From: Balanoglossus misakiensis
Lineage: Eukaryota; Animalia; Hemichordata
Assembly (NCBI GenBank): GCA_040954595.2
Contig: CM082583.2
Span: 1,374,925 to 1,438,924, forward strand
Reading direction: 5' to 3'
Length of the DNA stretch: 64,000 nucleotides
The position numbers were made by a program, and so were the translations under genes. The stretch's first letter is position 1. The number at the start of each line of letters is the position of its first letter. The notes under the pieces were generated by a model that saw only the letters and a list, made by a program, of their open reading frames with translations, was not told the origin of the DNA and did no database searches. Of this stretch, positions 4,516-59,969 are shown in pieces.

Positions 4516-5390
4516 TCAGATTTCCTACAGCATAAGTCGGCTAAAACCCTGACACTCTAGAGCAGAAACAGTTGCACACTGGTAACGTTGAACAAGTCGA
4601 TTTTTCTACGGCCTGGCTCGGCTAAATCTCCGTCACAATATGACAGACACTAGCGTACGTTAGCAACGGTGATCAAGTCAGATTTTCTACGGCATGGCTT
4701 GGATAAAGCCCCGGCACTCTAGAGCAGAAACACGCGTACAGAGACCACGTTGATCAAGTCTGATCTCCTACGGCTTGGCTCGACTAAAACCCCGGCACAC
4801 TATGACAGACACTAGCGTTCGTTAGCAACGTTGATCAAGACAGATTTCCTACGGCATGGCTTGGCTAAAGCCCTGGCACTCTAGAGCAGAAACACGCGTA
4901 CAGAGACCACGTTGATCTACTCACATTTCCTTCGGCCTGGCACGGCTGATGCCCCGGCACTATATATAGGACACAGACTGGCGTAAGTTAACAACGTTAA
5001 TCACGTCGGGTTTCCTACGGCCTGGCTCAGCTGAAGCCCCGGCACTCTAGAGCAGAAACAGGCGTACATTGACCACGTTGATCAAGTCAGATTTCCTACG
5101 GCGTGACTCGGCTGGTGCACCGGCTCTATATGACACAGACTGGCGTAAGTTATCAACGGTGATTACGTCGGATTTCCTACGGCCTGGTTTAGCTGAAGCC
5201 CTGGCACTTTAGAGCGGAAACACGCGTACATTGACCACGATGATCAAGTCAGATCTCCTACGGCCTGGCTCGACTAAAACCCCGGCACACCATGACTGAC
5301 ACTACCGTTCGTTAGCAACGGTGATCAAGTCGGATTTCCTTCGGCCTGGCTCTGCAAAAGACCCGACACTCTAGTACAAAGACGTTGGCT
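4516..5390 (+). repeat. 81-bp subrepeat array inside satellite monomer 1 (present in every complete monomer)
   Basis: Units TCAGATTTCCTACGGC...GTTGATCAAG start at 4516, 4597, 4678, 4759, 4840 and 4921 (period 81; one 85-bp variant). Confidence 0.9.
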
Positions 5391-8300
5391 AAGTCGGGCA
5401 AACCGAAGAGGGAAAGTCACAGCTGTTCAACACTTGACATTTGTTCGGGTAGGACTGCATTATTGCCTGTCAATTTATAGAGAAAGCCCGAATTTAACCA
5501 GGGCGTTTCAAACACCGACGTTAGTTGGGGGCACGGCCTGCAGTACTGCCGGGTAAGCTGACATCGGCGTACCGCATATAATGTAGGGGGGGGGGGGAAA
5601 CAGAACGGTTCAATACTACATTTATTAGATATCAGCTAATTTTGGACAATCATCTAAAATCTAAATCATTTTTTCATATTTGGATATCTGATGATGTATG
5701 AAATTTCCATTATATGTAAAAATGGTGCTGATTTTAAAAAATGCACTCTGATTTAATACAAAATTGCGTTTTATTCGTTTTTGCACCAAAAAGGTCATTT
5801 TTAGGCAAAACATTCTTTATTTTTTTAATTCGATTACCTGATCATATATAAAGAATTGCTTGTATGTTAAAAGTTTTTATGACTTTTAAAAGCAGTGACA
5901 CTGGCGGCATTCAACACGAAAATAACAATTTTAGCCACAATTTGGTCAAAATGGTAAATTTTTGAAAATTACAAAAAATACCTGTTTTCTACATTTTCGG
6001 AAATCTGATGGAGTATAGAATGCTCTTCGTAAGTATATATCGATACAAATTCACAAAAGACCGTCTAATTTAGCTCACTGCAGACAAATTGCGTTTTACC
6101 AAATTTTCCTTGAAAATGTCATTTTTAGAAGAAAAAAAAGAAAAAAACCTTTGTTCTTCGAATTTGGTGCCCTGATCATATATGACATGTTGATTGTATG
6201 TTAAAACTTTCGATCACTCCAAAAATGCAGAGATATTGACGGAATTCAAGAAAAAATAGCCATTTTGGCCATATTTTGACAAAAATGGTAAATTTTTAAA
6301 AAATCATAAAAAATTAACTCTTTTCTTCATTTTCGGAAATATTATGGAGCATGAAGTGTCGTTCTCTTGTAAAAAGTGCTGCAAATTCCAGAAAAGGCGG
6401 TATAATTTGAATCACCCAAGACAAATTTACCATTTTCGACTTTTTTCGAAAAATTGTCTTTTTTACAAAATAAATAAGAATAAATTCTTTTCTTAGTTTC
6501 AAACGGGTAGAGATACTTTCCACACGGGTTTTCTAACATTGAATTCCCGTTCATCAGCTCAGATTTCCTACAGCATTAGTCGGCTAAAACCCTGACACTC
6601 TAGAGCAGAAACAGTTGTACACTGGTAACGTTGAACAAGTCGATTTTTCTACGGCCTGGCTCGGCAAAATCTCCGTCACAATATGACAGACACTAGCGTA
6701 CGATAGCAACGGTGATCAAGTCAGATTTTCTACGGCATGGCTTGGATAAAGCCCCGGCACTCTAGAGCAGAAACACGCGTACAAAGACCACGTTGATCTA
6801 CTCACATTTCCTTCGGCCTGGCACGGCTGATGCCCCGGCACTATATATAGGACACAGGCTGGCGTAAGTTAACAACGGTAATCACGTCGGGTTTCCTACG
6901 GCCTGGCTCAGCTGAAGCCCCGGCACTCTAGAGCAGAAACACGCGTACAGAGACCACGTTGATCAAGTCTGATCTCCTACGGCTTGGCTCGACTAAAACC
7001 CCGGCACACTATGACAGACACTAGTGTTCGTTAGCAACGTTGATCAAGTCGGGTTTCCTACGGCCTGGCTCAGCTGAAGCCCCGGCACTCTAGAGCAGAA
7101 ACAGGCGTACATTGATCACGTTGATCAAATCAGATTTCCTACGGCGTGACTCGGCTGGTGCACCGGCTCTTTATGACACAGACTGGCGTAAGTTATCAAC
7201 GGTGATTACGTCAGATATCCTACGGCCTGGTTTAGCTGAAGCCCCGGCACTTTAGAGCGGAAACACGCGTACATTGACCACGATGATCAAGTCAGATCTC
7301 CTACGGCCTGGCTCGACTAAAACCCCGGCACACCATGACAGACACTAGCGTTCGTTAGCAACGGTGATCAAGTCGGATTTCCTTCGGCCTGGCTCTGCAA
7401 AAGATCCGACACTCTAGTGCAAAGACGTTGGCTAAGTCGGGCAAACCGAAGAGGGAAAGTCACAGCGGGTCAACACTCGACATTTGTTCGGGTAGGACTG
7501 CATTATTACCTGTCAATTTATAGAGAAAGCCCGAATTTAACCAGGGCGTTTCAAACACCGGCGTTAGTTGGGGGCACGGCCTGCAGTACTGCCGGGTAAG
7601 CTGACATCGCCGTACCGCATATTATGTAGGGGGGGGGGGGAAACAGAACGGTTCAATACTAAATTTATTAGAAATCAGCTAATTTTGGACAATCATCTAA
7701 AATCTAAATCATTTTTTCATATTTGGATATCTGATGATGTATGAAATTTCCATTATATGTAAAAATGGTGCTGATTATAAAAAATGCACTCTGAATGAGC
7801 TGATTTAATACAAAATTGCGTTTTATTCGTTTTTGCACCAAAAAGGTCATTTTTAGGCAAAACATTCTTTATTTTTTTTAATTCGATTACCTGATCATAT
7901 ATAAAGAATTGCTTGTATGTTAAAAGTTTTTATGACTTTTAAAAGCAGTGACACTGGCGGCATTCAACACGAAAATACCAATTTTAGCCACAATTTGGTC
8001 AAATAGGTAAATTTTTGAAAATTACAAAAAATACCTGTTTTGTATATTTTCGGCAATCTGATGGAGTATAGAATGCTCTTCGTATGTTTATATCGATACA
8101 AATTCCAAAAAAGACCGTCTAATTTGGCTCACTGCAGACAAAATTGCGTTTTACCAAATTTTCCTTGAAAATGTTATTTTTAGAAAAAAAAATAAAAAAA
8201 ACCTTTGTTCTTCGAATTTGGTGCCCTGATCATATATGACATGTTGATTGTATGTTAAAACTCTCGACCACTCCAAAAATGCAGAGATATTGACGGAATT

Positions 8301-9267
8301 CAAGAAAAAATAGCCATTTTGGCCATATTTTGACAAAAATGGTAAATTTTTAAAAAATCATAAAAAATAAACTCTTTTCTTCATTTTCGGAAATATTATG
8401 GAGCATGATATGTCGTTCTCTTGTAAAAAGTGCTGCAAATTCCAGAAAAGGCGGTATAATTTGAATCACCCAAGACAAAATTACCATTTTCGACTTTTTT
8501 TCGAAAAATTGTCTTTTTTACAAAATAAATAAGAATAAATTCTTTTCTTAGTTTCAAACGGGTAGAGATACTTTCCACACGGGTTTTCTAACATTGAATT
8601 CGCGTTCATCAACTCAGATTTCCTACAGCATAAGTCGGCTAAAATCCTGACACTCTAGAGCAGAAACAGTTGCACACTGGTAACGTTGAACAAGTCGATT
8701 TTTCTACGGCCTGGCTCGGCTAAATCTCCGTCACAATATGACAGACACTAGCGTACGTTAGCAACGTTGATCAAGTCAGATTTCCTACGGCCTGGTTTAG
8801 CTGAAGCCCCGGCACTTTAGAGCGGAAACACGCGTACAGAGACCACGTTGATCAAGTCTGATCTCCTACGGCTTGGCTCGACTAAAATCCCGGCACACTA
8901 TGACAGACACTAGCGTTCGTTAGCAACGTTGATCAAGTCAGATTTCCTACGGCCTGGTTTAGCTGAAGCCCCGGCACTTTAGAGCGGAAACACGCGTACA
9001 TTGACCACGATGATCAAGTCAGATCTCCTACGGCCTGGCTCGACTAAAACCCCGGCACACCATGACAGACACTAGCGTTCGTTAGCAACGGTGATCAAGT
9101 CGGATTTCCTTCGGCCTGGCTCTGCAAAAGACCCGACACTCTAGTACAAAGACGTCGGCTAAGTCGGGCAAACCGAAGAGGGAAAGTCACAGCGGGTCAA
9201 CACTCGACATTTGTTCGGGTAGGACTGCATTATTGCCTGTCAATTTATAGAGAAAGCCCGAATTTAA

Positions 9268-10063: not shown

Positions 10064-11740
10064 TTAACCAGGGCGTTTCAAACACCGACGTTAGTTGGGG
10101 GCACGGCCTGCAGTACTGCCGGGTAAGCTGACATCGGCGTACCGCATATAATGTATGGGGGGGGGGGGGAGAAACAGAACGGTTCAATACTACATTTATT
10201 AGATATCAGCTAATTTTGGACAATCATCTAAATCATTTTTTCATATTTGGATATCTGATGATGTATGAAATTTCCATTATATGTAAAAATGGTGCTGATT
10301 ATAAAAAATGCACTCTGATTTAATACAAAATTTCGTTTTATTCGTTTTTGCACCAAAAAGGTCATTTTTAGGCAAAACATTCTTTATTTTATTAATTCGG
10401 TGACCTGATCATATATAAACAATTGCTTGTATGTTAAAAGTGTTTATGACTTTTAAAAGCAGTGACACTGGCGGCATTTAACACGAAAATAACAATTTTA
10501 GCCACAATTTGGTCAAAATGGTAAATTTTTGAAAATTACAAAAAATACCTTTTTCTACATTTTCGGAAATCTGATGGAGTATAGAATGCTCTTCGTATGT
10601 AAATATCGATACAAATTCCACAAAAGACAGTCTAATTTGGCTCACTGCAGACAAAATTGCATGTTATCAAATTTTGCTTGAAAACGTCATTTTTAGAAAA
10701 AAAAATAAAAAAACCTTTGTTCTTCGAATTTGGTGCCCTGATCATATATGACATGTTGATTGTATGTTAAAACTTTCGACCACTCCAAAAATGTAGAGAT
10801 AGTGACGAAATTCAAGAAAAAATAGCCATTTTGGCCATATTTTGTCAAAAATGGTAAATTTTTAAAAAATCATAAAAAATTAATTCTTTTCTTCATTTTC
10901 GGAAATATTATGGAGCATGAAGTGTCGTTCTCTTGTAAAAAGTGCTGCAAATTCCAGAAAAGGCGGTATAATTTGAATCACCCAAGACAAAATTACCATT
11001 TTCGACTTTTTTCGAAAAATTGTCTTTTTTACAAAATAAATAAGAATAAATTCTTTTCTTAGTTTCAAACGGGTAGAGATACTTTCCACACGGGTTTTCT
11101 AACATTGAATTCCCGTTCATCAGCTCAGATTTCCTACAGCATTAGTCGGCTAAAACCCTGACACTCTAGAGCAGAAACAGTTGCACACTGGTAACGTTGA
11201 ACAAGTCGATTTTTCTACGGCCTGGCTCGTCTAAATCTCCGTCACAATATGACAGACACTAGCGTACGTTAGCAACGATGATCAAGTCAGATTTTCTACG
11301 GCAGGGCTTGGATAAAGCCCCGGCACTCTAGAGCAGAAAAACGCGTACAGAGACCACGTTGATCAAGTCTGATCTCCTACGGCTTGGCTCGACTAAAACC
11401 CCGGCACACTATGACAGACACTAGCGTTCGTTAGCAACGTTGATCAAGTCAGTTTTCCTACGGCATGGCTTGGCTAAAGCCCTGGCACTCTAGAGCAGAA
11501 ACACGCGTACAGAGACCACGTTGATCTACTAACATTTCCTTTGGCCTGGCACGGCTGATGCCCTGGCACTATATATCGGACACAGACTGGCGTAAGTTAA
11601 CAACGGTAATCACATCGGGTTTCCTACGGCCTGGCTCAGCTGAAGCCCCGGCACTCTAGAGCAGAAACAGGCGTACATTGACCACGTTGATCAAGTCAGA
11701 TTTCCTACGGCGTGACTCGGCTGGTGCACCGGCTCTATAT

Positions 11741-11767
11741 CACTCGCCCCGATCGCCAAATATGGAA
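11741..11767 (+). repeat. Left TIR of the 8.1-kb transposon
   Basis: Exact reverse complement of 19846-19872; both ends also carry a subterminal TGAATATTCAT. Confidence 0.95.
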
Positions 11768-11862
11768 TAATGAGATCGTGAATATTCATATTAAGTTTCG
11801 CAGTATTAGCCAATCAGTACGTCGAATTTTGGGGTCAGGGGTTACGAAGTGGCGGTACTTCT

Positions 11863-13466
11863 ACAGTCGCATCGATGACCCATATTAGGAGTTGCTTATT
11901 AGCATAAAAATTAACATATCATTAATATGTAGAACGCGATCTGACCAATGACGCGCCCGGAAAGCCGCGCCTCTCACCCATTTCCCCGCCCTTTGTTAAG
12001 AAAATCACGACTTTTTCTTTTCAAATGTAAATTTTGGGGTCAAATACGCTGTTTGGGGATATCCCGTCAATTGAAAATAAGAAAGTACGAGTCAAACTTG
12101 CTACCAGGTCAATAAGAAAATTTTTCACCAGTGCTTTTGTGAAATATTTAATTTTGATTTTGGCGTCTACGCTATTTTTTGAGGATTTCGCCTGAAAGAT
12201 GGCGACCTGGTATAGACAGACCGATGCATGAAATGAAGTGACGGTGGTCACCTGACTGGTATCATTGCAACCAAAACACACGACCTTTCTTCAGGGCCAT
12301 ACATCATTCAAAAGACAAGTACCAGTAGACAGTTTTTACATTTATCTATTGATTTTAGTTATGCGACTGAATTGAATATTTTGCATCACACTGAAACTCG
12401 TCACGGAAAAAAACGGGACTCAACCGTACCCTTTGACCTATGACTTTTGATCTTCATACTGTCAGTCTGTCGATCGCTGGTAATAATTGTTTTCGTGATG
12501 GAATAAGAATTTGTCTACGTTTTCGACAATCAAACATGAGGGTTACTCTTTGAATAAAGGTAGGGAACATGACGTGACTTGGTGTATGAATTGACGACCT
12601 TGACGGATAAGGGCAAGTGGCAGTAAAACAGCGAACTGACCAACTGGAAACCGTACAGGCTGGCTGCGCTGGTGTTCAAACAATATTTTCGTCCTCAGTC
12701 GACGACGTCCCTCCGCAATAAAGAGTGACTAACGTGTTTCGACATAGTGTTTATTAGTCTGTAAGTCGCAACTCATTACTTTGCATTACTACATGAAGGG
12801 GGATTATTATTTCCAGCCCAGCCGCTCAAAGTTTAAGTTGGCTCACAACAAAATTAAAACGGTAGAGCTTATTATGATCGTGGCGAAATGACAACCTTTG
12901 ATGTTACGTAGGACGAAATAAACAATCATTTGTCCTGGCTGTAGCTACAATCATGACTGTCAGCCTGTTTGTGTGGCGACGTACATGCGGTGAGGGTGGG
13001 CAGCACGCAGTTACATGCTGAACAGTAGAGGGGAGTAGTATCGGCAAAATCAAACTTTGCACAACTATAACGCAACCACATCGTCTAGAATAAAGACAAC
13101 GGGCGTTCCTTTGGCATCTCTTAGTACCTCCATGGTTTTAGGAAATATGCGGCCATCATCTGTCTAGCGAGGGGCGAGGACACGGGCGGGCGGCACCCAT
13201 TTCAAGTGCCTGTATACTTCCCACGCGTCCGCATCATATTTCAACGGCGTTGTTTACATGTAACTGTCTAACAGTATTCTAGTACATGTATGTCTTTTGG
13301 GGGTGCATGTCCTTAAAAGGTCGCTTTTTGCTTTGGTTGCTGTGCGCGGTGATATAGACAAGTCAGGTGATCACCGTCACTAGGAAACTTTGGCTCTCGA
13401 TGAACGCCTTCAATCTACATGCTCTGTCTAATAACGCCATCTTTCATGGGTCATCGATGCGACTGT
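11863..13466. mobile_element. Possible nested non-coding TIR element or duplicated cis-module inside the 8.1-kb transposon
   Basis: Perfect 21-bp inverted repeat ACAGTCGCATCGATGACCCAT (11863-11883 and 13446-13466) with TCT immediately outside both ends; no long ORF inside. Confidence 0.5.
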
Positions 13467-13743
13467 TCTATGCATGATATGTACGTAGAACGCGACCCAG
13501 CCAATCAAGTGACCTACGCTCTCATAAATTACATGGTCATACCAAAGTGGGCGGTCTTATGTCATCAAAGTTTTTCATTGACAACATTTCAACCCAGTTA
13601 CTCGAAAAATTACTCTGAAGTTCACCGATCCTTTCTTACGTAAGAACAATTTATTTTTGCGTCTTCCGGATAAAATCCTCCCTACGCTGCCCTGTAGTCC
13701 CGATCCCATGCCCAGCCGGCCCCTGCCGTGACATGATCGGCGC

Positions 13744-13752
13744 GGCGCGAAA
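13744..13752 (-). promoter_or_regulatory. E2F consensus site upstream of the HIRAN gene
   Basis: GGCGCGAAA (TTTCGCGCC on minus), about 110 bp before ATG 13861; a CCAAT (13501) and a GGGCGG box (~13549) lie further upstream. Confidence 0.5.
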
Positions 13753-13860
13753 TTACCTGTCGTCAGAAAAATCTGACACAATGATCTGCCGTCAGCTCAG
13801 TCGCTGAGTCACCAGTGTACTACACAGTCACCAGAGAACGCCAACGTACGTCAAATCAAA

Positions 13861-14259
13861 ATGCCGAAAGTTATTATTCACGGAGTGAATGCCGTGGGAA
13901 TGGCTCACTACAGAGGAGATTTGACAGTCGGGGAAATATACTATTTGCGCCGCGAGCATGACAATCCTCACGATAGAAATGCCATCGCAATAGTGGATTC
14001 GTCGGAGCCCGGGCCGCGGACCCAAATATTTGGCCATTTGAAGCGTCGCGCCGCACGTTTAATCGCAAGAGTAATCGATGCGGGGCTTGCCTCAAATGGT
14101 GTTTATTATTTGAAGCCTAAGGCCCGCGGTTTCTTCTATTCACGACGTAGCGGTGTCGTTCAGTGGTGCAACGTAGGGTTTCTTTTGAAGAAAAGTGATG
14201 TGGATCGAGCTAGTGAAGTCCTGTTAGGCAACGGATTTAAAGTTACGTGCTCGGACTAA
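13861..14259 (+). CDS. Stand-alone HIRAN-domain protein (132 aa), intronless transposon cargo
   Basis: Intact ORF with TCAAAATG start context. VGMAHY..LTVGEIYYLRREHDNPHDRNAIAIV..IFGHLKRRAARLIA matches the HIRAN pattern (G..Y; L.REP.NP.D.NAI.V; GY/H.P...A..LA). Confidence 0.88.
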   Translation: MPKVIIHGVNAVGMAHYRGDLTVGEIYYLRREHDNPHDRNAIAIVDSSEPGPRTQIFGHLKRRAARLIARVIDAGLASNGVYYLKPKARGFFYSRRSGVVQWCNVGFLLKKSDVDRASEVLLGNGFKVTCSD

Positions 14260-14291
14260 TCGTTTTCTTCCATTCAGTTGGAAAACACAAC

Positions 14292-14333
14292 AAAAACGGC
14301 CCTTTTAAGGGCCACCAAATCCTCCAGAAAGAG
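14292..14333 (+). terminator. Replication-dependent histone-type 3' processing signal (stem-loop plus HDE)
   Basis: AAAAAC-GGCCCT-TTTA-AGGGCC-ACCAAA (stem-loop 14298-14313, 38 nt after the HIRAN stop) followed by purine-rich CAGAAAGAG at 14325-14333. Matches the metazoan consensus AACGGCYCTTTTMAGRGCCACCA plus a CAAGAAAGA-type HDE. Confidence 0.9.
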
Positions 14334-15431
14334 ATATGCCATTAGGCGTTACACGAGAATCTATTATAATGATTATATTCTTGTCACACGGTCACTCTGT
14401 GTGGAGTGACCTGGTTGTCAATGTCATTGTCGTATGTTTTGATTGTTTTGTAGATTGCACATAAGGTCGTTGACCTTTGTACCATGCACTCCAGCGTATC
14501 AGTTTGAGCACACGAGCAGTTCCTATATTTTTGGTTGCAAATACAATTTATCTCACAGTATATTAATTTTAAGGAGCCAATTGTAGAAATCACACTTGTA
14601 ATATTTCACATATTACATATGATCACCCATTTGTTTTAAATTGTCATTTAATTGCTAAGTCATTATCATGTTACACATTTCATGTTATTCTCATTCAGTT
14701 CTCCAGTGTCACTCACATCTGTTATCAGTCTCACACACAATTAATCCATATGAATGCAAGTGTCAACCATGTGTCTTGTCTATTCTGTCAAGTCCACAGT
14801 CCTCACCATTGTATTGTACATGTCACAGTGTCATTGTTACTACCCCAGTCACATACACCATTTTGTTTGTCCATTTGTAATTTATTGAAGAACAATAATT
14901 CAGCCAAAAATTATTTCTAATTAATCATGTTTCACACAATATCATTAACAATGTGTTCAATTAAGCTGTATATATTTATAACACTGAGAAGTCTAACGTC
15001 ATCTTTGTATGGAACTCAACGTTTAATATTAAATAAATATGTATTTCTACATTACACTTGTATATATTATCTATTACATTATATATTGGAAATTTCATAT
15101 TTACACATGACACACATATTTACAATATTTCTGTTAAACTGGATTTTGATAATTAAAGGAAATGTAATATTTATGTTTATATATAAATTATTAATATATT
15201 AGTATTGTAAATATTATAATATTTCTAACACTAGATTGAATGTTATTTTCCAAGCTTGAACAGGATTATTATGTATGATATTCATATTTGTCTTTAACCC
15301 CTGGGATGTTTAGATTTGTCTATCATGGAATGTGTGCAGAGCTGACTTTTCTACACTGATAGGGTGTGTAAAATGCCAAAGAACTTATCCAACACTGCAA
15401 CAGTGGATGATTCTGTAATATTGTGAAGATT

Positions 15432-18400
15432 CTATTCTATTGTAGCAATGTACTCCCTTACATCACTTAAAAGTTTAAGTAACCCATCTTTCTTATGTTC
15501 TTTTCTTAACTTGATGACAAACTTTTCTTTGTCAAAATTGCTTGGTACAACAGACAAAAGAGTGTTGATTTCATTTGTAATTTGCAGATTTGTTTTGTTC
15601 TGATCTAATTCAAAGTATTCCCTTTCTGTTGGTGTTACGAAGACTGGTAGAGGGGTTGGTCTTTTTGATGGGTATATTCCTGGCAAGAGGTATTCAGTTA
15701 TCAAATCATGTTGGCGCTGCTTTGCTATGATTGGCAAACTTAACAGTTCAAAATCTAATGGTTTGCCACAAACAGACAACAGCTTTCTGCCAAAAGTGGG
15801 CTTACAATAACTATTGCGGCGGAGTAGGATATGAAATTCTGTCAGTTCATTTTTGTATGTTGGGTATGTTCTTTGGCGTTTTTCAACATGGGGAAGTGAC
15901 AGTGTAGTTGTGACAGCATTCCTCAAAGCCACCAATGTGTCATAATTGGCTATAACCCGTTCCCAAGTTTTATAGTTTGGTTCTCCTCCAATCCATTTTT
16001 TAACTTCTTTGTTATATTCTTCAAGGACAAAATCTGTTCCTTGATGAGCTGTGGGTGAACCAGACCTTGATATGCTTTCATACCTCTGAAGAATCTGATT
16101 AAGGTCATAAGGGTATCTAATCCTGTCAAATTCATCCCAGCATTCGATGACCTGATATTTAGGGTGGTTTCTAGTAAACCATACAGGCATGAATAACCTC
16201 CTGCCTGTTCTGATCAAACAGCTGTTGTTACTCCTTATACCTTTCCTGAACAATTTCAACCCTAAACAGTGAGGTATAAGTTGATTCACAATCAACTGAA
16301 AGGTGTCATCATTACTGGTGTTAGCAAATGCCCACTCCAAAAACCTTTGAAATGATATTGACTCAGTATTATCAGTATCTTTGACATAGTTATACACAAG
16401 TTCATCAATTATACCATCACAGAATTTAAGGAAATTGTCAAATGCCTGATGGTGGTCCCCACAGCTTTTGAAGAACATGAGAGATTTCTCTGTCTTGTAT
16501 CCTTGTGTTTTAGCAAACTCTTCATACAACACATCCCAATATAATCCAATCAATGCTTTGAGCATATTCATTAATTTCCTCATGACCCAACCCAGTCCTC
16601 AGAAGTACCCAGTCAAATTCCCCTGAACTCTCAGCAATAATTTTTCTGACCAACCCTGATGGTAATCCATCACAACGAACAATTGTCCACTCCCTTTTAC
16701 CGTCAGGATTATAATATTTAATCCCTGCATGTCTACCAATTGATCTAAGTACTTCCTTAACAGCCTCAATACTACTTGGATTGACAAACACAGGAGCAAT
16801 CATTTGGATTTGAGGGATATTACATCTCTCTTTTGTGTTTTTTTCAATGGTGCTGTCACTTTCAAGAGAAGGGAAACTGTTATGGAAAACAAGGCTGCGA
16901 GATGTTGATTTTGACTTCTTTTCAACCCTTGTATTTAAGCTATCCCCTTTTTCCTGTGCCTTTCTTTCTTTTGCTATCCATGTACCACATTTTTCACATT
17001 TTTTCTTTGATTTCAGATTTCTATAATTGCATTGAGGTACAGGGCAAATTTTATACTCTTCTTGTTCTTTCCTTTTCTCCAATTCATTTTCAATGGAATT
17101 AATGTCATCTGTTTTGTTCAATCTTTCAGTTAAATATTTATCAAATTCTCCATGGTATGCCGATATCATGTCTGTTGTAAGTTCACACAAACTCAAAGCT
17201 TCTTCATCACTAGGAACAGGAAAATTACTTGGCTTATAGTTCTCATCCTCTTGAATAGTTGAAAGGGGATCTAATTGTACACATATTGAATTAGTTAAAA
17301 TCTCCAATACTTGTTTATTTTGATTACGTGACAGTCTTGTCTTCATTAATCTTTGCTCATTATCAAAACAATACTCTAACAAACCCTGTGGTGTATTACT
17401 CTCTGATTTCACTCCCATTTCTGTTAACATTGAATAAATAGTATCATAACTCCCCCCAGGACAAATATGACCAACAATATCAATTACACTCTCACTTTGA
17501 CAAATTGAATATATAACAGCTTCCACTGCACACACAAAATCACTGATATAATTTAGGTTTCTAGCATTATAAATGGACTCAACAGCAAGAAATTTCTTAA
17601 CTTTGTGTTTTTCGTTTGATTTTTTTGATACTGGCGATTTGTGGTGAGTAAATCCATTCACAGCAGCCACAACCACAGGATTTCTATTATTAACCAATTC
17701 ATCTATATTTATATTAATTTGATTTTCAAGACTTCTAGATTGCTTATTTTGTTGCATCTCCACAGAATGGTCAAAAATAGCCTCACTCTCAAGCTCTGAG
17801 ATCTTTTTAATTGCATCTATTCTTTTTCTTTGTGTATCAAACTGATTTAGAATGGATGTTTTGAGTTCAAGTCTTTCTTTATTTGAACTTTCTATCTCCC
17901 TCTTCAGCCTCCTTATTTCCTTATCTTGTTCTTCTATCCTCTTTATTAAGTCAGCCATTCCACTGCACATGTGTTGAGGTGGATCCTAAGCAAAACACAT
18001 CAAAGTAACCTTTGGTTAGATCCAAATACAACAGACAGACAGACAGACTAGGCCAGATTGACACACAGGCAGAGCAAGAGACGGACAGCAAACATACTGA
18101 AAAAAATAGCAACATATTACAGCTACTTATACTATCCCATTTGATTCTAAATGTTTGCTGAAAGTATAGCTATTTATAAGTAGAAAATGTGTGTGGGTAT
18201 AATAGGTGTATTTATTTGCTACCGACTGAACAAGATATCAAATATTTTTGCACAACACTTTTTACCTGCACATGAATTGCTCTAGTTTACCTAAACACCT
18301 GAGCTATTTGAATGCGACTCACAGGCAGCATTTTACTGGATAACAAAAACCTCTCACTGACTACTGGGTTTGTCCAGCCCAACTTCCTTAGCTTGGCTCA

Positions 18401-19498
18401 ATCCAAAGGGTTACAGTCTAGCAATTGTATGTGAACTAGGTAATCATTTCAGTGTCAGCATACCTGTAGATTCTGCACTGAAGGTTCATATCCACTACCA
18501 GTAACATCAGCAGACTCTTGATGTTCCTATTATATTGAAATAAATTTAATTAAAAATTTCGAAAATATATTCATGAAATTAATGCAAAAAATTGCAGCTA
18601 TTGGGGCTTTAAGCACTTAGGGGTGGACTTGGCGCTTTGCTGTAAAATTACCTATGCATGCTATCACAGGCGTCGGATTCACATTGCTGTGATTGCTTGA
18701 TTGAACCTGTAAATAAATAAACCTTATTTACAGGTTGAATCAAGCGATCACAGCAGTGTGACTCCGACGCCTGTGCATGTTATGATAGTGCCAGACAAAG
18801 AAGGCGAGAGCGGCTGCTGACAGACTTATTATTTGGCCCGGCCTGTACGAAAATATGTGGGACGATTTTAATTGTGTTGTTGGGACGTCGACCTCGGCCG
18901 CTCGGTCCCTGGATCTGGAGGGACCGTGTAATTAGGATGTCGGGTGCAGGCGAGACTTTCCCTGCTTGTTTCTTACTATCGTAGACCCTTTTTGACAATA
19001 ACACAGAATGAAAGTTAATGTGTAAGGCCATGAAGGAAACAAACGTACGCAAGATAAAATCACTGCCTAAGATCGTATCTAGCGTTGTTTACATTGTTGA
19101 CAGGTCATCGGTCAAACACCGAAGGTCAACTTATCGCCCTCACGAGAGAAAAGAAACAGTTGTTTTATTTTTCGGATACGTACCTGCACTGTTCGCCCGT
19201 GTCCCAGAGTTCCCGCATCACCAAAACGGGTAAATTCCCTCTTCGTCGGGGCTATTTCGATGCATTTCCTGCAGATTGTTGCGGTGCGGTGTACGCCAAG
19301 TCTAGAAAAAATGTTCCGGTACTCCTTTCTTACGTACTTGGCGATTTCTGGTCGTGTATTTGTCCCCCGGTTCCATTTTTCATGGAACGGGTTTTTACAT
19401 TGCGGTGTTTTTTGCGTGACAACTAAAATTATTACTGTGATTAAAATAAAAGTGATTGCAAACGCTGAAATAAAATAGACAACTTCCCTGGTGTGCAT
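15432..19498 (-). CDS. Spliced putative DDE-type transposase (~975 aa if repaired), one frameshift; superfamily unassigned, motif order resembles Academ/DUF6589-type proteins
   Basis: Exons 19498-19184 (105 aa, CKNPFH..ICRKC), 18526-18464 (21 aa) and 17985-15432, all GT-AG, phase 0 and in frame. Coiled coil; YCFDNEQ; zinc ribbon CPVPQC..CEKC; VNPSS; VRCDGLP; LRTGLGHEE; RNHPKYQ; QGTDFVLEEYNKEVK. Frameshift near 16571-16574 splits ORFs 16522-17970 and 15432-16583. Confidence 0.78.
18665..18775. repeat. 111-bp foldback (52-bp arms) in transposase intron 1
   Basis: CACAGGCGTCGGA...GTAAATAA / TTATTTACAGG...GACGCCTGTG with 4 mismatches; flanked by CATGCTAT / CATGTTAT (possible 8-bp TSD). Confidence 0.85.
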
Positions 19499-19845
19499 GT
19501 TTGCTCAAAGCTAGCTGGTCGAGGGTTCGAAAATCTGTTTGAAAAGTGTCGTCTGCTCACTGACGATCGGTCGTCAAGGGCGACGTATGACGTCAATCGG
19601 GAATGCACAGCGCTGATCGTGAGTTACCTGACAGCTCCAGTATAGTATATTTTACTTTTGCATTTTCATAATTTTCTGAAGAAGACTGTAATTTTCACAG
19701 TTTATTTATTACGATGATGAAAAAAAATTGCGAGGCTGCTGTGTTCATCACATGGGTGCAATGAAATTGCTAATACGATTGGCTCCATTTCTACTGTGTC
19801 CATAGAAACGTTCTATAATGAATATTCATTTATTCTAATTAATGT

Positions 19846-19872
19846 TTCCATATTTGGCGATCGGGGCGAGTG
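19846..19872 (-). repeat. Right TIR of the 8.1-kb transposon
   Basis: TTCCATATTTGGCGATCGGGGCGAGTG followed by the TATAT TSD. Confidence 0.95.
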
Positions 19873-22800
19873 TATATGACACAGACTGGCGTAAGTTATC
19901 AACGGTGATTACGTCGGATTTCCTACGGCCTGGTTTAGCTGAAGCCCCGGCACTTTAGAGCGGAAACACGCGTACATTGACCACGATGATCAAGTCAGAT
20001 CTCCTACGGCCTGGATCGACTAAAACCCCGGCACACCATGACAGACACTAGCGTTCGTTAGCAACGGTGATCAAGTCGGATTTCCTTCGGCCTGGCTCTG
20101 CAAAAGACCCGACACTCTAGTACAAAGACGTTGGCTAAGTCGGGCAAACCGAAGAGGGAAAGTCACAGCGGGTCAACACTCGACATTTGTTCGGTTAGGA
20201 CTGCATTATTGCTTGTCAATTTATAGAGAAAGCCCGAATTAAACCAGGGCGTTTCAAACACCGACGTTAGTTGGGGGCACGGCCTGCAGTACTGCCGGGT
20301 AAGCTGACATCGGCGTACCGCATATAATGTAGGGGGGGGGGGGTGGAACGGTACAATACTACACTTATTAGATATCAGCTAATTTTGGACAATCATCTAA
20401 AATCTAAATTATTTGGATATCTGATGATGTATGAAATTTCCATTATATGTAAAAATGGTGCTGATTATAAAAAATGCACTCTGAATGAGCTGATTTAATA
20501 CAAAATTGCGTTTTATTCGTTTTTGCACCAAAAAGGTCATTTTTAGGCAAAACATTCTTTATTTTTTTAATTTGGTGACCTGATCATATATAAACAATTG
20601 CTTTTATGTTAAAAGTTTTTATGACTTTTAAAAGCAGTGACACTGGCGGCATTCAACACGAAAAATACCAATTTTAGCCACAATTTGGTCAAAATAGTAA
20701 ATTTTTGAAAATTACAAAAAAATACCTGTTTTCTACATTTTCGGAAATCTGATGGAGTATAGAATGCTCTTCGTATGTATATATCCATACAAATTCCACA
20801 AAAGACCGTCTAATTTGGCTCACTGCAGACAAAATTGCGTTTTACCAAATTTTCCTTGAAAATGTCATTTTTAGAAAAAAAAAATAAAAAAAAACCTTTG
20901 TTCTTCGAATTTGATGCCCTGATCATATATGACATGTTGATTGTATGTTAAAACTTTCGACCACTCCAAATATGCAGAGATATTGACGGAATTCAAGAAA
21001 AAATAGCCATTTTGGCCATATTTTGACAAAAATGGTAAATTTTTAAAAAATCATAAAAAATTAATTCTCTTCTTCATTTACGGAAATATTATGGAGCATG
21101 AAGTGTCGTTCTCTTGTAAAAAGTACTGCAAATTCCAGAAAAGGCGGTATAATGTGAATTACCCAAGACAAAATTACCATTTTCGACTTTTTTTCGAAAA
21201 ATTGTGTTTTTTACAAAATAAATAAGAATAAATTCTTTTCTTAGTTTCAAACGGGTAGAGATACTTTCCACACGGGTTTTCTAACATTGAATTCCCGTTC
21301 ATCAACTCAGATTTCCTACAGCATAAGTGGGCTAAAACCCTGACACTCTAGAGCAGAAACAGTTGCACACTGGTAACGTTGAACAAGTCGATTTTTCTAC
21401 GGCCTGGCTCGGCTAAATCTCCGTCACAATATGACAGACACTAGCATACGTTAGCAACGGTGATCAAGTCAGATTTTCTACGGCATGGCTTGGATAAAGC
21501 CCCGGCACTCTAGAGCAGAAACACGCGTACAGAGACCACGTTGATCAAGTCTGATCTCCTACGGCTTGGCTCGACTAAATCCCCGGCACACTATGACAGA
21601 CCCTAGCGTTCGTTAGCAACGTTGATCAAGTCAGATTTCCTACGGCATGGCTTGGCTAAAGCCCTGGCACTCTAGAGCAGAAACACGCGTACAGAGACCA
21701 CGTTGATCTACTCACATTTCCTTTGGCCTGGCACGGCTGATGCCCCGGCACTCTATAGCAGAAACAGGCGTACATTGACCACGTTGATCAAGTCAGATTT
21801 CCTACGGCGTGACTCGGCTTGTGCACCGGCTCTATATGACACAGACTGGCGTAAGTTATCAACGGTGATTACGTCGGATTTCCTTCGGCCTGGTTTAGCT
21901 GAAGCCCCGGCACTTTAGAGCGGAAACACGCGTACATTGACCACGATGATCAAGTCAGATCTCCTACGGCCTGGATCGACTAAAACCCCGGCACACCATG
22001 ACAGACACTAGCGTTCGTTAGCAACGGTGATCAAGTCGGATTTCCTTCGGCCTGGCTCTGCAAAAGACCCGACACTCTAGTACAAAGACGTTGGCTAAGT
22101 CGGGCAAACCGAAGAGGGAAAGTCACAGCGGGTCAACACTCGACATTTGTTCGGTTAGGACTGCATTATTGCTTGTCAATTTATAGAGAAAGCCCGAATT
22201 AAACCAGGGCGTTTCAAACAATGACGTTAGTTGGGGGCACGGCCTGCAGTACTGCCGGGTAAGCTGACATCGGCGTACCGCATATAATGTAGGGGGGGGG
22301 GGGGGGGTGGAACGGTTCAATTCTACATTTATTAGATATCAGCTAATTTTAGACAATCATCTAAAATCTAAATTATTTGGATATCTGATGATGTATGAAA
22401 TTTCCATTATATGTAAAAATGGTGCTGATTATAAATAATGCACTCTGATTTAATACAAAATTGCGTTTTATTCGTTTTTGCACCAAAAAGGTCATTTTTA
22501 GGCAAAACATTCTTTATTTTTTTAATTCGGTGACCTGATCATATATAAACAATTGCTTGTATGTTAAAAGTTTTTATGACTTTTAAAAGCAGTGACACTG
22601 GCGGCATTCAATACGAAAATAACAATTTTATCCACAATTTGGTCAAAATGGTAAATTTTTGAAAATTTCAAAAAATACCTGTTTTCTACATTTTCGGAAA
22701 TCTGATGGAGTATATAATGCTCTTCGTATGTATATATCGATACAAATTCCACAAAAGACCGTCTAATTTGTCTCACTGCAGACAAAATTGCGTTTTACCA

Positions 22801-23257
22801 AATTTTCCTTGAAAATGTCATTTTTAGAAAAAATAAATAAAAAAACCTTTGTTCTTCGAATTTGGTGCCCTGATCATATATGACATGTTGATTGTATGTT
22901 AAAACTTTCGACCACTCCAAATATGCAGAGATATTGACGGAATTCAAGAAAAAATAGCCATTTTGGCCATATTTTGACAAACATGGTAAATTTTTAAAAA
23001 ATCTTAAAAAATTAATTCTCTTCTTCATTTTCGGAAATATTATGGAGCATGAAGTGTCGTTCTCTTGTAAAAAGTGCTGCAAATTCCAGAAAAGGCGGTA
23101 TAATGTGAATCACCCAAGACAAAATTACCATTTTCGACTTTTTTTCGAAAAATTGTTTTTTTTTACAAAATAAATAAGAATAAATTCTTTTCTTAGTTTC
23201 AATCGGGTAGAGACACTTTTCACACGGGTTTGCTAACATTGAATTCCCGTTCATCAA

Positions 23258-25370
23258 CTCAGATTTCCTACAGCATAAGTCGGCTAAAACCCTGACACTC
23301 TAGAGCAGAAACAGTTGCACACTGGTAACGTTGAACAAGTCGATTTTTCTACGGCCTGGCTCGGCTAAATCTCCGTCTGACTCACAATATGACAGACACT
23401 AGCGTACGTTAGCAACGGTGATCAAGTCAGATTTCCTACGGCCTGGTTTAGCTGAAGCCCCGGCAATTTAGAGCGGAAACACGCGTACAGAGACCACGTT
23501 GATCAAGTCTGATCTCCTACGGCTTGGCTCGACTAAAACCCCGGCACACTATGACAGACACTAGCGTTCGTTAGCAACGTTGATCAAGTCAGATTTCCTA
23601 CGGCATGGCTTGGCTAAAGCCCTGGCACTCTAGAGCAGAAACACGCGTACAGAGACCACGTTGATCTACTCACATTTCCTTCGGCCTGGCACGGCTGATG
23701 CCCTGGCACTATATATAGGACACAGACTGGCGTAAGTTAACAACGGTAATCACGTCGGGTTTCCTACGGCCTGGCTCAGCTGACGCCCCGGCACTCTAGA
23801 GCAGAAACAGGCGTACATTGACCACGTTGATCAAGTCAGATTTCCTATGGCGTGACTCGGCTGGTGCACCGGCTCTATATGACACAGACTGGCGTAAATT
23901 ATCAACGGTTATTCCGTCGGATTTCCTACGGCCTGGTTTAGCTGAAGCCCCGGCAATTTAGAGCGGAAACACGCGTACAGAGACCACGTTGATCAAGTCT
24001 GATCTCCTACGGCTTGGCTCGACTAAAACCCCGGCACACTATGACAGACACTAGCGTTCGTTAGCAACGTTGATCAAGTCAGATTTCCTACGGCATGGCT
24101 TGGCTAAAGCCCTGGCACTCTAGAGCAGAAACACGCGTACAGAGACCACGTTGATCTACTCACATTTCCTTCGGCCTGGCACGGCTGATGCCCCGGCACT
24201 ATATATAGGACACAGACTGGCGTAAGTTAACAACAGTAATCACGTCGGGTTTCCTACGGCCTGGCTCAGCTGAAGCCCCGGCACTCTAGAGCAGAAACAG
24301 GCGTACATTGACCACGTTGATCAAGTCAGATTTCCTATGGCGTGACTCGGCTGGTGCACCGGCTCTATATGACACAGACTGGCGTAAGTTATCAACGGTT
24401 ATTCCGTCGGATTTCCTACGGCCTGGTTTAGCTGAAGCCCCGGCAATTTAGAGCGGAAACACGCGTACAGAGACCACGTTGATCAAGTCTGATCTCCTAC
24501 GGCTTGGCTCGACTAAAACCCCGGCACACTATGACAGACACTAGCGTTCGTTAGCAACGTTGATCAAGTCAGATTTCCTACGGCATGGCTTGGCTAAAGC
24601 CCTGGCACTCTAGAGCAGAAACACGCGTACAGAGACCACGTTGATCTACTCACATTTCCTTCGGCCTGGCACGGCTGATGCCCCGGCACTATATATAGGA
24701 CACAGACTGGCGTAAGTTAACAACGGTAATCACGTCGGGTTTCCTACGGCCTGGCTCAGCTGAAGCCCCGGCACTCTAGAGCAGAAACAGGCGTACATTG
24801 ACCACGTTCATCAAGTCAGATTTCCTACGGCGTGACTCGGCTTGTGCACCGGCTGTACATGACACAGACTAGCGTAAGTTATCAACACTGATTACGTCGA
24901 ATTTCCTACGGCCTGGTTTAGCTGAAGCCCCGGCACTTTAGAGCGGAAACACGCGTTCATTGACCACGATGATCAAGTCAGATCTCCTACGGCCTGGCTC
25001 GACTAAAACCCCGGCACACCATGACAGACACTAGCGTTCGTTTGCAACGGTGATCAAGTCAGATTTTCTACGGCATGGCTTGGATAAAGCCCCGGCACTC
25101 TAGAGCAGAAACACGCGTACAGAGACCACGTTGATCAAGTCTGATCTCCTACGGCTTGGCTCGACTAAAATCCCGGCACACTATGACAGACACTAGCGTT
25201 CGTTAGCAACGTTGATCAAGTCAGATTTCCTACGGCCTGGTTTAGCTGAAGCCCCGGCACTTTAGAGCGGAAACACGCGTACATTGACCACGATGATCAA
25301 GTCAGATCTCCTTCGGCCTGGCTCTGCAAAAGACCCGACACTCTAGTACAAAGACGTTGGCTAAGTCGGG
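23258..25370 (+). repeat. Expanded 81-bp subrepeat block with a 490-bp (6-mer) higher-order period
   Basis: The diagnostic variant CGGCAATTTAGAGCGGAAAC recurs at 23461, 23951 and 24441 (490 = 6x81+4). Confidence 0.85.
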
Positions 25371-27190
25371 CAAACCGAAGAGGGAAAGTCACAGCGGGTC
25401 AACACTCGACATTTGTTCGAGTAGGACTGCATTATTGCCTGTCAATTTATAGAGAAAGCCCGAATTTAACCAGGGCGTTTCAAACACCGACGTTAGTTGG
25501 GGGAACGGCCTGCAGTACTGCCGGGTAAGCTGACATCGGCGTACCGCATATAATGTAGGGGGGGGGGGAAAGAACGGTTCAATACTACATTTATTAGATA
25601 TCAGCTAATTTTGGACAATCATCTAAAATCTAAATCATTTTTTCATATTTGGATATCTGATGATGTATGAAATTTCCATTATATGTAAAAATGGTGCTGA
25701 TTATAAAAAATGCACTCTGAATGAGCTGATTTAATACAAAATTGCGTTGTATTCGTTTTTGCACCAAAAAGGTCATTTTTAGGCAAAACATTCTTTATTT
25801 TTTTAATTCGGTGACCTGATCATATATAAACAATTGCTTGTATGTTAAAAGTTTTTATGACTTTTAAAAGCAGTGACACTGGCGGCATTCAACACGAAAA
25901 TAACAATTTTAGCCACAATTTGGTCAAAATGGTAATTTTTTGAAAATTACAAAAAATACCTGTTTTCTACATTTTCGGAAATCTGATGGAGTATAGAATG
26001 TTCTTCGTATGTATATATCGATACAAATTCCAAAAAGACAGTCTAATATGGCTCACTGCAGACAAAATTGCGTTTTACCAAATTTTCCTTGAAAATGTCA
26101 TTTTTAGAAAAATAAATAAAAAAACCTTTGTTCTTCGAATTTGGTGCCCTGTTCATATATGACATGTTGATTGTATGTTAAAACTTTCGACCACTCCAAA
26201 ATTGCAGAGATATTGACGGAATTCAAGAAAAAATAGCCATTTTGGCCATATTTTGACAAAAATGGTAAATTTTTAAAAAATCATAAAAAATAAACTCTTT
26301 TCTTCATTTTCGGAAATATTATGGAGCATGAAGTGTCGTTCTCTTGTAAAAAGTGCTGCAAATTCCAGAAAAGGCGGTATAATTTGAATCACCCAAGACA
26401 AAATTACCATTTTCGACTTTTTTTCGAAAAATTGTCTTTTTTACAAAATAAATAAGAATAAATTCTTTTCTTAGTTTCAAACGGGTAGAGATACTTTCCA
26501 CACGGGTTTTCTAACATTGAATTCGCGTTCATCAACTCAGATTTCCTACAGCATAAGTCGGCTAAAATCCTGACACTCTAGAGCAGAAACAGTTGCACAC
26601 TGGTAACGTTGAACAAGTCGATTTTTCTACGGCCTGGCTCGGCTAAATCTCCGTCACAATATGACAGACACTAGCGTACGTTAGCAACGGTGATCAAGTC
26701 AGATTTTCTACGGCATGGCTTGGCTAAAGCCCTGGCAGTCTAGAGCAGAAACACGCGTACAGAGACCACGTTGATCAAGTCTGATCTCCTACGGCTTGGC
26801 TCGACTAAAATCCCGGCACACTATGACAGACACTAGCGTTCGTTAGCAACGTTGATCAAGTCAGATTTCCTACGGCCTGGTTTAGCTGAAGCCCCGGCAC
26901 TTTAGAGCGGAAACACGCGTACATTGACCACGATGATCAAGTCAGATCTCCTACGGCCTGGCTCGACTAAAACCCCGGCACACCATGACAGACACTAGCG
27001 TTCGTTAGCAACGGTGATCAAGTCGGATTTCCTTCGGCCTGGCTCTGCAAAAGACCCGACACTCTAGTACAAAGACGTTGGCTAAGTCGGGCAAACCGAA
27101 GAGGGAAAGTCACAGCGGGTCAACACTCGACATTTGTTCGGGTAGGACTGCATTATTGCCTGTCAATTTATAGAGAAAGCCCGAATTTAA

Positions 27191-52969: not shown

Positions 52970-53135
52970 ATGAAAAAAAGAGTCCATTAGCTGTGTGCTT
53001 GAGTATGAGTGTAATATATGTATGTACGTATTTATGCATGTATGTAGCCAGCAAACACACAAAACATATTGTGTATATTCAATTCCATACAGTGTTTGAT
53101 AATAAATATGTTGCTGTTTTACAATTTGGCATTCA

Positions 53136-59932: not shown

Positions 59933-59969
59933 GTGAGACATAAAATACTGTTCCTGATGCTCCGTGAGA

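Follow-up and report, generated by a model that had tools for sequence, protein, structure and literature searches.

A 64,000-nucleotide stretch of DNA from the hemichordate Balanoglossus misakiensis (GenBank assembly GCA_040954595.2, contig CM082583.2, positions 1,374,925 to 1,438,924 of the forward strand; hereafter the window, counted from its first letter) was found to contain an 8.1-kb two-gene cut-and-paste DNA transposon at 11741-19872, flanked by a 5-bp target-site duplication (TSD). With a probability of roughly 0.6, its transposase is a divergent relative of Chapaev, representing a deep side branch of the Chapaev-type (CMC/CMCT) group that lacks the zinc fingers of that group. The family was filed as Chapaev-type because of the Chapa zinc finger in relatives of the window protein, the CAC..GTG ends of the element and the spacing from the second Asp (D2) through a C(2)C motif to an [L/G]H motif. 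The second gene, judged by its domain match, encodes a stand-alone HIRAN domain protein and is followed by a predicted histone-type 3' end. The element had been described before from its letters and open reading frames (ORFs) alone (the sequence-only reading), as an unclassified transposon with RAG/Transib-like ends and a different transposase.

Element ends, target-site duplication and empty sites

The ends of the element and their flanks are as follows.

11741-11767, plus strand: left terminal inverted repeat (TIR), 27 bp (CACTCGCCCCGATCGCCAAATATGGAA), exact inverted repeat
19846-19872, minus strand: right TIR, 27 bp, exact inverted repeat
11779-11789, plus strand: left copy of the subterminal block TGAATATTCAT, shared with the right end
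19818-19828, minus strand: right copy of the same block, shared with the left end
11736-11740, no strand: left copy of the TSD TATAT, abutting the left TIR
19873-19877, no strand: right copy of the TSD TATAT, abutting the right TIR

The whole window was searched for the TIR with up to three mismatches, and no match was obtained beyond the two perfect copies (expectation from shuffles, 0). The element begins with CACTCG and ends with CGAGTG, giving CAC..GTG termini. Similarity between the two arms extends to 52 nt at 77%, and the block TGAATATTCAT lies about 40 nt inside both ends in inverted orientation, making it a possible second transposase-binding site.

The empty-site string GGCTC-TATAT-GACACAGAC had seven matches in the window at up to three mismatches, compared with 0.02 expected. 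Four were exact and lay in sister satellite monomers (5122, 21828, 23871, and 24361); the others were at 7165 (one mismatch), at 24851 (two mismatches) and at the right flank of the element itself. DNA contigs from two runs (X1 and X2) of one sample of the same organism, both from one study, showed the same junction. Position 11735 was joined to 19873 in 5 contigs of X1 and 14 of X2, with 8137 bases skipped and five letters fitting either side, and contigs of the element began precisely at 11741 and stopped precisely at 19872. A TSD of 3 or 4 bp is irreconcilable with these data because the empty sites show 5 bp. The perfect TIRs and the 5-bp TSD with empty sites in sibling monomers, both reported in the sequence-only reading, were thus confirmed, as was its pair of tail-to-tail genes, with the HIRAN gene on the plus strand and the transposase gene on the minus strand.

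The DNA that hosts the element is an 81/162-bp satellite. Arrays of this satellite occupy 4510-5374, 6548-7421, 8682-9143, 11114-11722, 19876-20095, 21296-22079, 23248-25346, and 26531-27067, recurring about every 2 kb, and a 490-bp higher-order unit was found at 23387-25312 (94% matches). The satellite must be very abundant because its contig depth in the runs is 1e5-1e6. An abundant satellite thus served as the transposon target.

Transposase gene and state of this copy

The transposase gene lies on the minus strand in two frames, 17985-16522 and 16598-15432, and has the following parts.

16570-17970, minus strand: first part of the transposase, upstream-frame residues M6 to N472, delimited by homologue alignment
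Within the first part, minus strand: coiled-coil N-terminus (upstream frame)
17364-17362, minus strand: first Asp, D208, in FDNEQ (upstream frame)
17046-16987, minus strand: zinc ribbon, C314 to C333 (upstream frame)
16671-16669, minus strand: second Asp, D439, in CDGLP (upstream frame)
16584-16582, minus strand: H468 in GLGHEEIN (upstream frame)
16566-16569, minus strand: 4-nt insertion with a +1 frame shift, the sole frame-breaking lesion
15432-16565, minus strand: second part of the transposase, downstream-frame residues M12 to E388 and the stop codon, delimited by homologue alignment
Within the second part, minus strand: helical insertion domain, RNHPKY and DFVLEEYNK (downstream frame)
16022-16020, minus strand: candidate catalytic Glu, E193, in DFVLEEYNK (downstream frame)

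Residues 6-472 of the upstream frame align with P0001, the closest intact homologue (30% identical, E 3e-59), and this alignment terminates precisely at GLGHEEIN; the alignment of the downstream frame to homologues starts at about residue 10. Because the homologue alignment stops and restarts at this break, a 4-nt insertion was placed at 16566-16569. In the contigs, four letters are left out at 16570 by all of the covering depth (172.8 of 172.8 in X1 and 542.5 of 542.5 in X2). Since the contigs lack the insertion, at least one intact version of the element is present in the same organism. A script search found no unique four-letter reading step that bridges the two frames, and a 31-nt intron in place of a frameshift was rejected, as homologues and reads show a 4-nt insertion. 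The read-through transposase measures approximately 844 amino acids from its first Met (467 + 377 residues), which corrects the length of approximately 975 given in the sequence-only reading for the repaired protein.

Long contig pieces diverge by approximately 0.3-0.6% from the window; one example has 10 substitutions and the 4-letter gap over 3,053 bases. Among the differences listed for the transposase, seven in number, six change a residue and one is silent. At two positions of the downstream frame, G18 and H256, the read variant has the family-conserved E and R, respectively. The window copy is therefore young but dead, carrying one 4-nt insertion and substitutions at conserved sites. As had been proposed before, the insertion is young because its TIRs and TSDs are identical and the contigs are so little diverged.

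The transposase family and its kinship with Chapaev

An HMMER scan with the downstream frame retrieved 633 proteins at E ≤ 1e-3, of which 306 reached ≤ 1e-10 and 40 reached ≤ 1e-30. Identity to the best homologue in this family is only 35%, and full-length members are approximately 850-1250 amino acids long. The members with names, which come from Gigaspora, Lytechinus, Owenia, Branchiostoma, and Crassostrea, are named only "uncharacterized" or "hypothetical". The genomic context found for relatives consisted of one 1344-bp metagenome contig without neighbor genes. A word-based search of longer proteins with the downstream frame gave no match, and a PDB sequence search with both frames returned chance-level rows only.

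Pfam scans were performed on the window protein and 65 different relatives. DUF6589 (PF20231) scored 13.8 bits in the downstream frame of the window, below its gathering cut-off of 27; it exceeded 27 bits in 6 of the 24 relatives of one scan and was mostly below the cut-off in the family. The DUF6589-type likeness remarked upon in the sequence-only reading nevertheless stands, as this is the only core family that recurs, and DUF6589 sets made up 19 of the 30 clusters nearest to the transposase in the protein atlas. A literature search on DUF6589 yielded nothing concerning transposable elements. Judged by these profiles, the transposase belongs to a large unnamed eukaryotic family that is weakly DUF6589-like. 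Neither the window protein nor the 65 relatives matched the Pfam families for the RAG1 core, Transposase_21, hAT, P-element, KDZ, or the THAP domain, in agreement with the earlier statement that RAG1/Transib core motifs are lacking. Membership in hAT was considered and rejected; no Pfam hAT dimerization domain was present, and the ends are unlike the YARNG rule of hAT elements.

Conservation was determined from 36- and 45-row alignments, and the positions given here are invariant or at least 90% conserved and are all kept in the window. In the upstream frame, they are D208-N-x-Q (FDNEQ; N209 and Q211), the three Cys of the zinc ribbon (C314, C330, and C333), FVNP, D439-G-x-P (CDGLP; G440 and P442) and G465-x-x-H468-x-E-x-N472 (E470). 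In the downstream frame, they are H50, R143-x-H145-x-x-Y148 (RNHPKY), D189-x-x-x-E193-x-x-N196 (DFVLEEYN) and W212. All of the motifs quoted in the sequence-only reading (FDNEQ, CDGLP, GLGH, NHPKY, and DFVLEEYNK) were found in the translations.

Chapaev is a group of the CMC/CMCT clade (Kapitonov and Jurka, 2007, with Yuan and Wessler, 2011, and Zhang et al., 2014). Zhang et al. (2014; PMC4079192) list as its hallmarks invariable 5'-CAC..GTG-3' ends, a TSD of 3-4 bp (TWA in Chapaev3) and three transposase motifs that lie after the second Asp and before the Glu, namely C(2)C, LH and H(4)H. The CMCT clade as a whole is characterized by CA..TG ends and TSDs of 2-5 bp (Kojima, 2025). According to one study, no transposable element is known to encode the Chapa domain besides Chapaev, Chapaev3 and TransibSU/RAG1-like elements (Kapitonov and Koonin, 2015), and a 2026 preprint gives the same restriction together with a link between Chapa/NZD and ZAD. 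The comparison with Chapaev was based on such published descriptions, on Chapa-domain rows and on one Chapaev3 protein.

The Pfam family RAG1_imp_bd, which corresponds to the RAG1 N-terminal Chapa zinc finger, was above its cut-off in 7 of the 65 relatives (P0008, P0014, P0021, P0026, P0070, P0053, and P0091), in each case at the N-terminus. A regular expression for the Chapa-like N-terminal motif selected 14 proteins, 9 of them from one oyster cluster. By eye, the N-termini selected in this way resemble the published Chapa alignment (LCRxCG ... IHPxxxCxxC ... CxxC ... GRGK; Additional file 5 of Kapitonov and Koonin, 2015). Among the 150 best matches, 59 carry both DGxP and GxxHxExN, and 31 of these 59 have CxxC..HxxxxH between the two. 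This C(2)C..H(4)H finger sits 14-17 residues past the second Asp and is followed by G[LG]HxExN. The median distances in the 31 relatives are 17 from D2 to C(2)C and 44 from C to the H of GxxH; the corresponding spacings in the Chapaev3 protein Garfield_BM (supplement of Zhang et al., 2014) are 19 and 49, counted by hand with our own choice of the second Asp. The claim that this is a different transposase, outside the RAG/Transib world, does not agree with the Chapa finger and the C(2)C..H(4)H finger in these relatives.

A tree was constructed from the C-terminal half of 45 rows, with SH-aLRT support and a midpoint root. The window protein grouped with P0001-P0003 (98), and the sister of this group consisted of Gigaspora proteins and two long branches. 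The clade of the window comprised 8 rows (98), none of which has a Chapa domain or C2H2 finger. All rows scored as Chapa by the regular expression were within a separate 24-row clade (95), which also held P0014, a RAG1_imp_bd match, though the regular expression scored it negative. The window protein and P0001-P0003 have GLGHxExN only, with no C(2)C/H(4)H. The element does not appear to be a RAG/Transib member. It is best seen, from these comparisons, as a sister lineage to Chapaev proper in which a coiled-coil N-terminus takes the place of the zinc finger and the TSD is 5 bp long. The suggestion that the lineage is poorly described or new therefore stands in part: the lineage is divergent, is without the zinc modules and has a 5-bp TSD, but it more probably branches from a described group than constitutes an entirely new superfamily, and the latter we regard as unlikely.

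The HIRAN gene and its histone-type 3' end

The second gene and its 3' region consist of the following features.

13861-14259, plus strand: HIRAN gene, 132 codons plus stop (Pfam HIRAN)
14293-14337, plus strand: histone-type 3' end signal (Rfam Histone3)
14298-14313, plus strand: stem-loop GGCCCT-TTTA-AGGGCC, 39 nt past the HIRAN stop codon, with ACCA next, to 14317
14324-14334, plus strand: purine-rich CCAGAAAGAGA, downstream of ACCA

The Pfam HIRAN profile (PF08797), whose cut-off is 24.7 bits, matched with 49.2 bits (E 4.7e-13). The 132-residue protein also matched HLTF HIRAN chains (E 3.2e-5), the alignment covering NPxDxNAI and GHLK, and HIRAN sets accounted for 26 of its 30 nearest clusters in the protein atlas. 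Together with the ends and the TSD, the Pfam match upholds the earlier description of a cut-and-paste element with HIRAN as its second gene. The 3' end signal matched the full Rfam Histone3 model (RF00032, positions 1-46) with 37.3 bits against a gathering threshold of 34 (E 4.1e-8), and the hairpin was also present in the minimum-energy fold. The purine-rich CCAGAAAGAGA presumably resembles the downstream element of sea urchin histone genes. In addition, 13311-13338 is 79% complementary to the stem-loop region at 14283-14310. Among titles and abstract beginnings, no transposon gene with a histone stem-loop was found, and full-text searches turned up no transposon that recruited a DNA-damage-tolerance module.

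DNA transposons often capture host genes. The HIRAN gene could accordingly be a passenger, that is, a captured host or host-like gene with a histone-type 3' end that plays no part in transposition, in a transposon that works with one protein. The closest transposase homologues are known as single proteins only, a word-based protein search with HIRAN found no close relative, and no report that joins the HIRAN domain to a DNA transposon was found in the literature. The state of the gene argues for a working part of the element: its ORF is intact, the read-variant differences among those listed are one synonymous change and one S97C, and it possesses its own predicted 3' processing signal within the element. 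The HIRAN and transposase genes also point toward each other, an arrangement known from other two-gene transposons. Moreover, the HLTF HIRAN domain binds free 3'-OH DNA ends, and this ligand is a species made by transposition. Co-folding of the two transposase pieces with HIRAN, performed without supplied alignments, gave a score of 0.00 and a mark of 0.34, which speak neither for nor against binding. We consider a passenger to be a serious possibility, albeit the less probable one.

Fold of the family and weighing of the Chapaev placement

The structural model was made of P0001 (67-row alignment, 909 residues) rather than of the broken protein of the window. It had a mean pLDDT of 86.7 and a pTM of 0.82. 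Each of the three conserved acidic residues was located in, or next to, one of three structural elements: strand 251-256, strand 486-490 and helix 698-710. Foldseek against the PDB gave no match at E ≤ 1e-3 for this 909-residue model. Alignment by VIA-align to 48,161 chains gave the P element transposase (6p5a) as the best match (Z 10.9, 357 residues aligned, root-mean-square deviation 6.3, model residues 170-736), followed by retroviral integrases and Tn5 (Z approximately 8) and Hermes (Z 7.8-8.3); matches to RNase H-like integrases and transposases ranged over Z 7-11. RAG1 and Transib were outside the top 50 of this wide search, and a second look at them gave Z 6.5 for HzTransib (337 aligned) and Z 5.1 for RAG1. 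This model, with that of P0026 below, shows the transposases of the family to be DDE enzymes that combine an RNase H-like fold and a helical insertion domain. The RNase H fold with D/D/E positions, which had been put forward as a check on the sequence-only reading, was therefore recovered in the P0001 model, and D208, D439 and E193 are conserved and kept in the window.

P0026, a lancelet protein that bears the Chapa finger, was also modeled (pLDDT 78.7) and had the same order of matches: P element (Z 9.7), Hermes (8.9) and RAG1 (5.3), with RAG1/Transib at rank 48 of the wide search. Its N-terminal domain matched ZAD domains (Z 5.5). The cores of Chapa-bearing transposases (P0026, P0008, and others) thus fold nearest to the P element and Hermes, and RAG1 reaches only Z 5.3. 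If the Chapa-bearing relatives are the Chapaevs of Repbase, their placement beside Transib deserves a renewed look.

Several points weigh against the Chapaev placement, and most of them favor instead a cut-and-paste superfamily of its own. Such a "DUF6589-type" superfamily would be akin to P and hAT and not to Chapaev/CMC, with Chapa as a mobile N-terminal module acquired by another branch, and is essentially what the sequence-only reading proposed. In comparison with the predicted models, the solved Transib and RAG1 structures rank below the P element and Hermes (HzTransib 6.5 and RAG1 5.1-5.3, compared with 10.9 and 9.7 for the P element and 7.8-8.9 for Hermes). The window protein has no Chapa domain and no C(2)C/H(4)H, and the assignment rests on a domain that the profile searches place solely in branches of the family other than its own; in the tree, the Chapa-bearing rows are confined to their 24-row clade, apart from the 8-row clade of the window at the midpoint root. 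The Cys and His pairs are contiguous in the relatives, and no H(3-4)H was found near the catalytic Glu, whereas H(4)H stands just before the Glu in Garfield_BM and likewise in RAG1. The Pfam scans gave no match to CMC-type or RAG1 core families, and the TSD of 5 bp exceeds the 3-4 bp published for Chapaev and the TWA of Chapaev3. On the side of the second gene, the role of HIRAN in transposition, its recurrence in related elements and the stem-loop mRNA end are predictions.

Other evidence speaks against a superfamily of its own. In the literature cited above, Chapa is reported only in Chapaev, Chapaev3, TransibSU and RAG1-like elements, and yet it occurs here on a homologous core. The same sources give CAC..GTG ends for Chapaev and a TSD of 2-5 bp as typical of the CMCT clade, and the D2-C(2)C-[L/G]H spacing is similar to that of the Chapaev3 transposase. 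In addition, only Transib and RAG1 structures have been solved among CMC transposases, and the fold ranking therefore cannot exclude CMC. Based on this balance, we find a separate superfamily rather doubtful and retain the placement of the transposase as a divergent relative of Chapaev. Membership in the Academ superfamily is very improbable: the DUF6589-type likeness noted in the sequence-only reading and a spread over animals and fungi like that of Academ would suit it, but the published TSD lengths for this superfamily are 3-4 bp in AcademX and 9-10 bp in AcademH (PMC10045372) against 5 bp here, and neither the ORFs of the element nor the 65 scanned relatives showed an XPG nuclease or a helicase, as gene or as domain.

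Proposed mechanism and significance

In the proposed mechanism, the transposase would act as a multimer that binds both the 27-bp TIRs and the subterminal block TGAATATTCAT. Excision would be catalyzed by D208, D439 and E193, and the 3'-OH ends would then be joined to target phosphates staggered by 5 bp, with gap repair of the stagger producing the TATAT duplication. The chemistry of excision cannot be told from the sequence, as flank hairpins (hAT, Transib, and RAG) and staggered cuts (P) would both fit. The HIRAN protein may bind free 3'-OH ends, either the excised ends or those at the 5-nt target gaps. Its mRNA would be produced and stabilized in S phase alone through histone-type 3' processing. 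Transposition, or its repair, would thereby be timed to replication, when the sister chromatid can restore the donor site. The HIRAN gene and its histone-type stem-loop are accordingly predicted to link transposition with the replication of DNA.

A fuller account would combine all of these features: an undescribed deep branch of the RAG1-finger-bearing family, sister to Chapaev proper, with CAC ends, a 5-bp TSD, a P-element-like core, and a 3'-end-binding HIRAN cofactor limited to S phase by its histone-type mRNA end. We offer this combination tentatively and regard it as unlikely. If true, this would be the first transposon known to time its transposition to replication by means of the histone mRNA pathway. 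HIRAN with the histone stem-loop suggests a concrete and testable route by which a transposon could be coupled to S phase and to the handling of 3' ends.

Chapaev-type elements are the only transposons outside the RAG/Transib line with the zinc finger of the RAG1 N-terminus, and their biology has been little studied. Notable features here are the 5-bp TSD, the HIRAN partner with its histone stem-loop, the presence of intact copies among the reads and a nested relative. The CAC ends, the 5-bp TSD, the P-element-like core and the intact copies provide material for a transposition assay. The lineage may also help to trace the evolution of TSD length and end chemistry throughout the CMC/Transib/RAG assemblage and to check the placement of Chapaev beside Transib.

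Nested element and other features

The left part of the transposon contains a nested 1.6-kb insertion, which adds to the earlier description of this region. This insertion and a palindrome within the transposon are as follows.

11864-13465, plus strand: nested 1.6-kb non-autonomous element with a perfect 20-nt TIR, CAGTCGCATCGATGACCCAT (inverted repeat and contig joints)
11859-11863, no strand: TTCTA, probable 5-bp TSD of the nested element, with its right copy at 13466-13470 (contig joints)
18665-18775, no strand: near-perfect 111-bp palindrome with 52-nt arms, 92% complementary, approximately 700 bp upstream of the transposase start

The perfect inverted repeat of the nested element spans 11863-11883 and 13446-13466. 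Contigs of both runs join 11858 to 13466 with 1607 bases skipped and five letters (TTCTA) fitting either side; some copies therefore lack the nested segment. Its ends can be read as CAG...CTG (11864-13465), which gives a 5-bp TSD, or as ACAG...CTGT, which gives a 3-bp TSD. The CAG register matches the parent end at 10 of the first 13 positions (CAGTCGCATCGAT compared with CACTCGCCCCGAT), and CASTCGCNNCGAT is limited in the window to the four termini of the parent and the nested element. Because the four termini share CASTCGCNNCGAT and the CAG register fits the parent end, the reading that is favored is a non-autonomous relative of the parent with a 5-bp duplication of its own, independent of the first. 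The ORFs of the nested element had no Pfam match. Its contig depth of 350-550 exceeds the depth over the parent body (approximately 170 in X1) two- to threefold, and the contigs contain a further deleted form, 12194 to 13165.

A CCAAT-containing stretch (ATATGTA..TAGAACGCGA..CCAAT.A) is shared by the nested element and the parent, at 11915-11950 and 13476-13510, respectively, at similar distances from the left end of each; a common promoter or binding site is conceivable. The palindrome at 18665-18775, folded as DNA, has an energy of -55.9 kcal/mol (z -15.9), and contigs of the runs break near 18550. It was considered as a microRNA and rejected, as its Rfam scores were far below gathering and were taken as generic hairpin matches. 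Elsewhere in the window, 58815-60931 contains three long ORFs of 238, 412, and 250 amino acids with no Pfam match, the only other ORFs of at least 150 amino acids, and 53127-54272 is a tandem repeat with a 309-bp unit (3.7 copies, 90% matches).

Comparison with known systems

The 132-residue protein aligns with the solved HIRAN domain of HLTF and keeps NPxDxNAI and GHLK. Unlike HLTF, it stands alone, with no SWI/SNF ATPase or RING domain, its gene lies in a transposon, and its mRNA is predicted to have a histone-type end. That end resembles those of replication-dependent histone genes in its 6-bp stem, 4-nt loop, ACCA and downstream purine-rich element; it differs in that the product is not a histone and in that the processing site here is predicted.

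The P element transposase (6p5a) is alike in its RNase H core, helical insertion domain and upstream helices. The two share 9% identity, and the present family has no THAP domain, different ends and no sign of GTP dependence; the P element TSD is 8 bp. KDZ (Kyakuja-Dileera-Zisupton) elements have TSDs of 7-8 bp (PMC12730594), unlike the 5 bp found here, and no KDZ Pfam match was obtained.

With Transib and ProtoRAG, the element shares TIRs that start with CAC and a 5-bp TSD, and it has two convergent genes as in ProtoRAG. The zinc finger of the RAG1 N-terminus also occurs in relatives of the window protein. It differs from Transib and RAG in its lack of a Pfam RAG1/Transib core match, in the low structural scores of HzTransib and RAG1 and in its lack of a C(2)C/H(4)H zinc site, and from ProtoRAG in that its partner is a HIRAN protein and not a kelch/PHD RAG2-like protein.

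Compared with Chapaev, the window element is distinguished by its 5-bp TSD, its HIRAN second gene and its coiled-coil N-terminus; its clade is without the Chapa and C2H2 fingers, which were either lost or never present, and the fold of its family is nearer to the P element and hAT than to Transib and RAG1. What it shares with Chapaev are the CAC..GTG ends, a short TSD and a large DDE transposase (approximately 850-1250 amino acids) whose family is found in lancelet, molluscs, echinoderms and annelids, together with, in relatives, the Chapa zinc finger, a C(2)C finger just past the second Asp and the [L/G]H motif.

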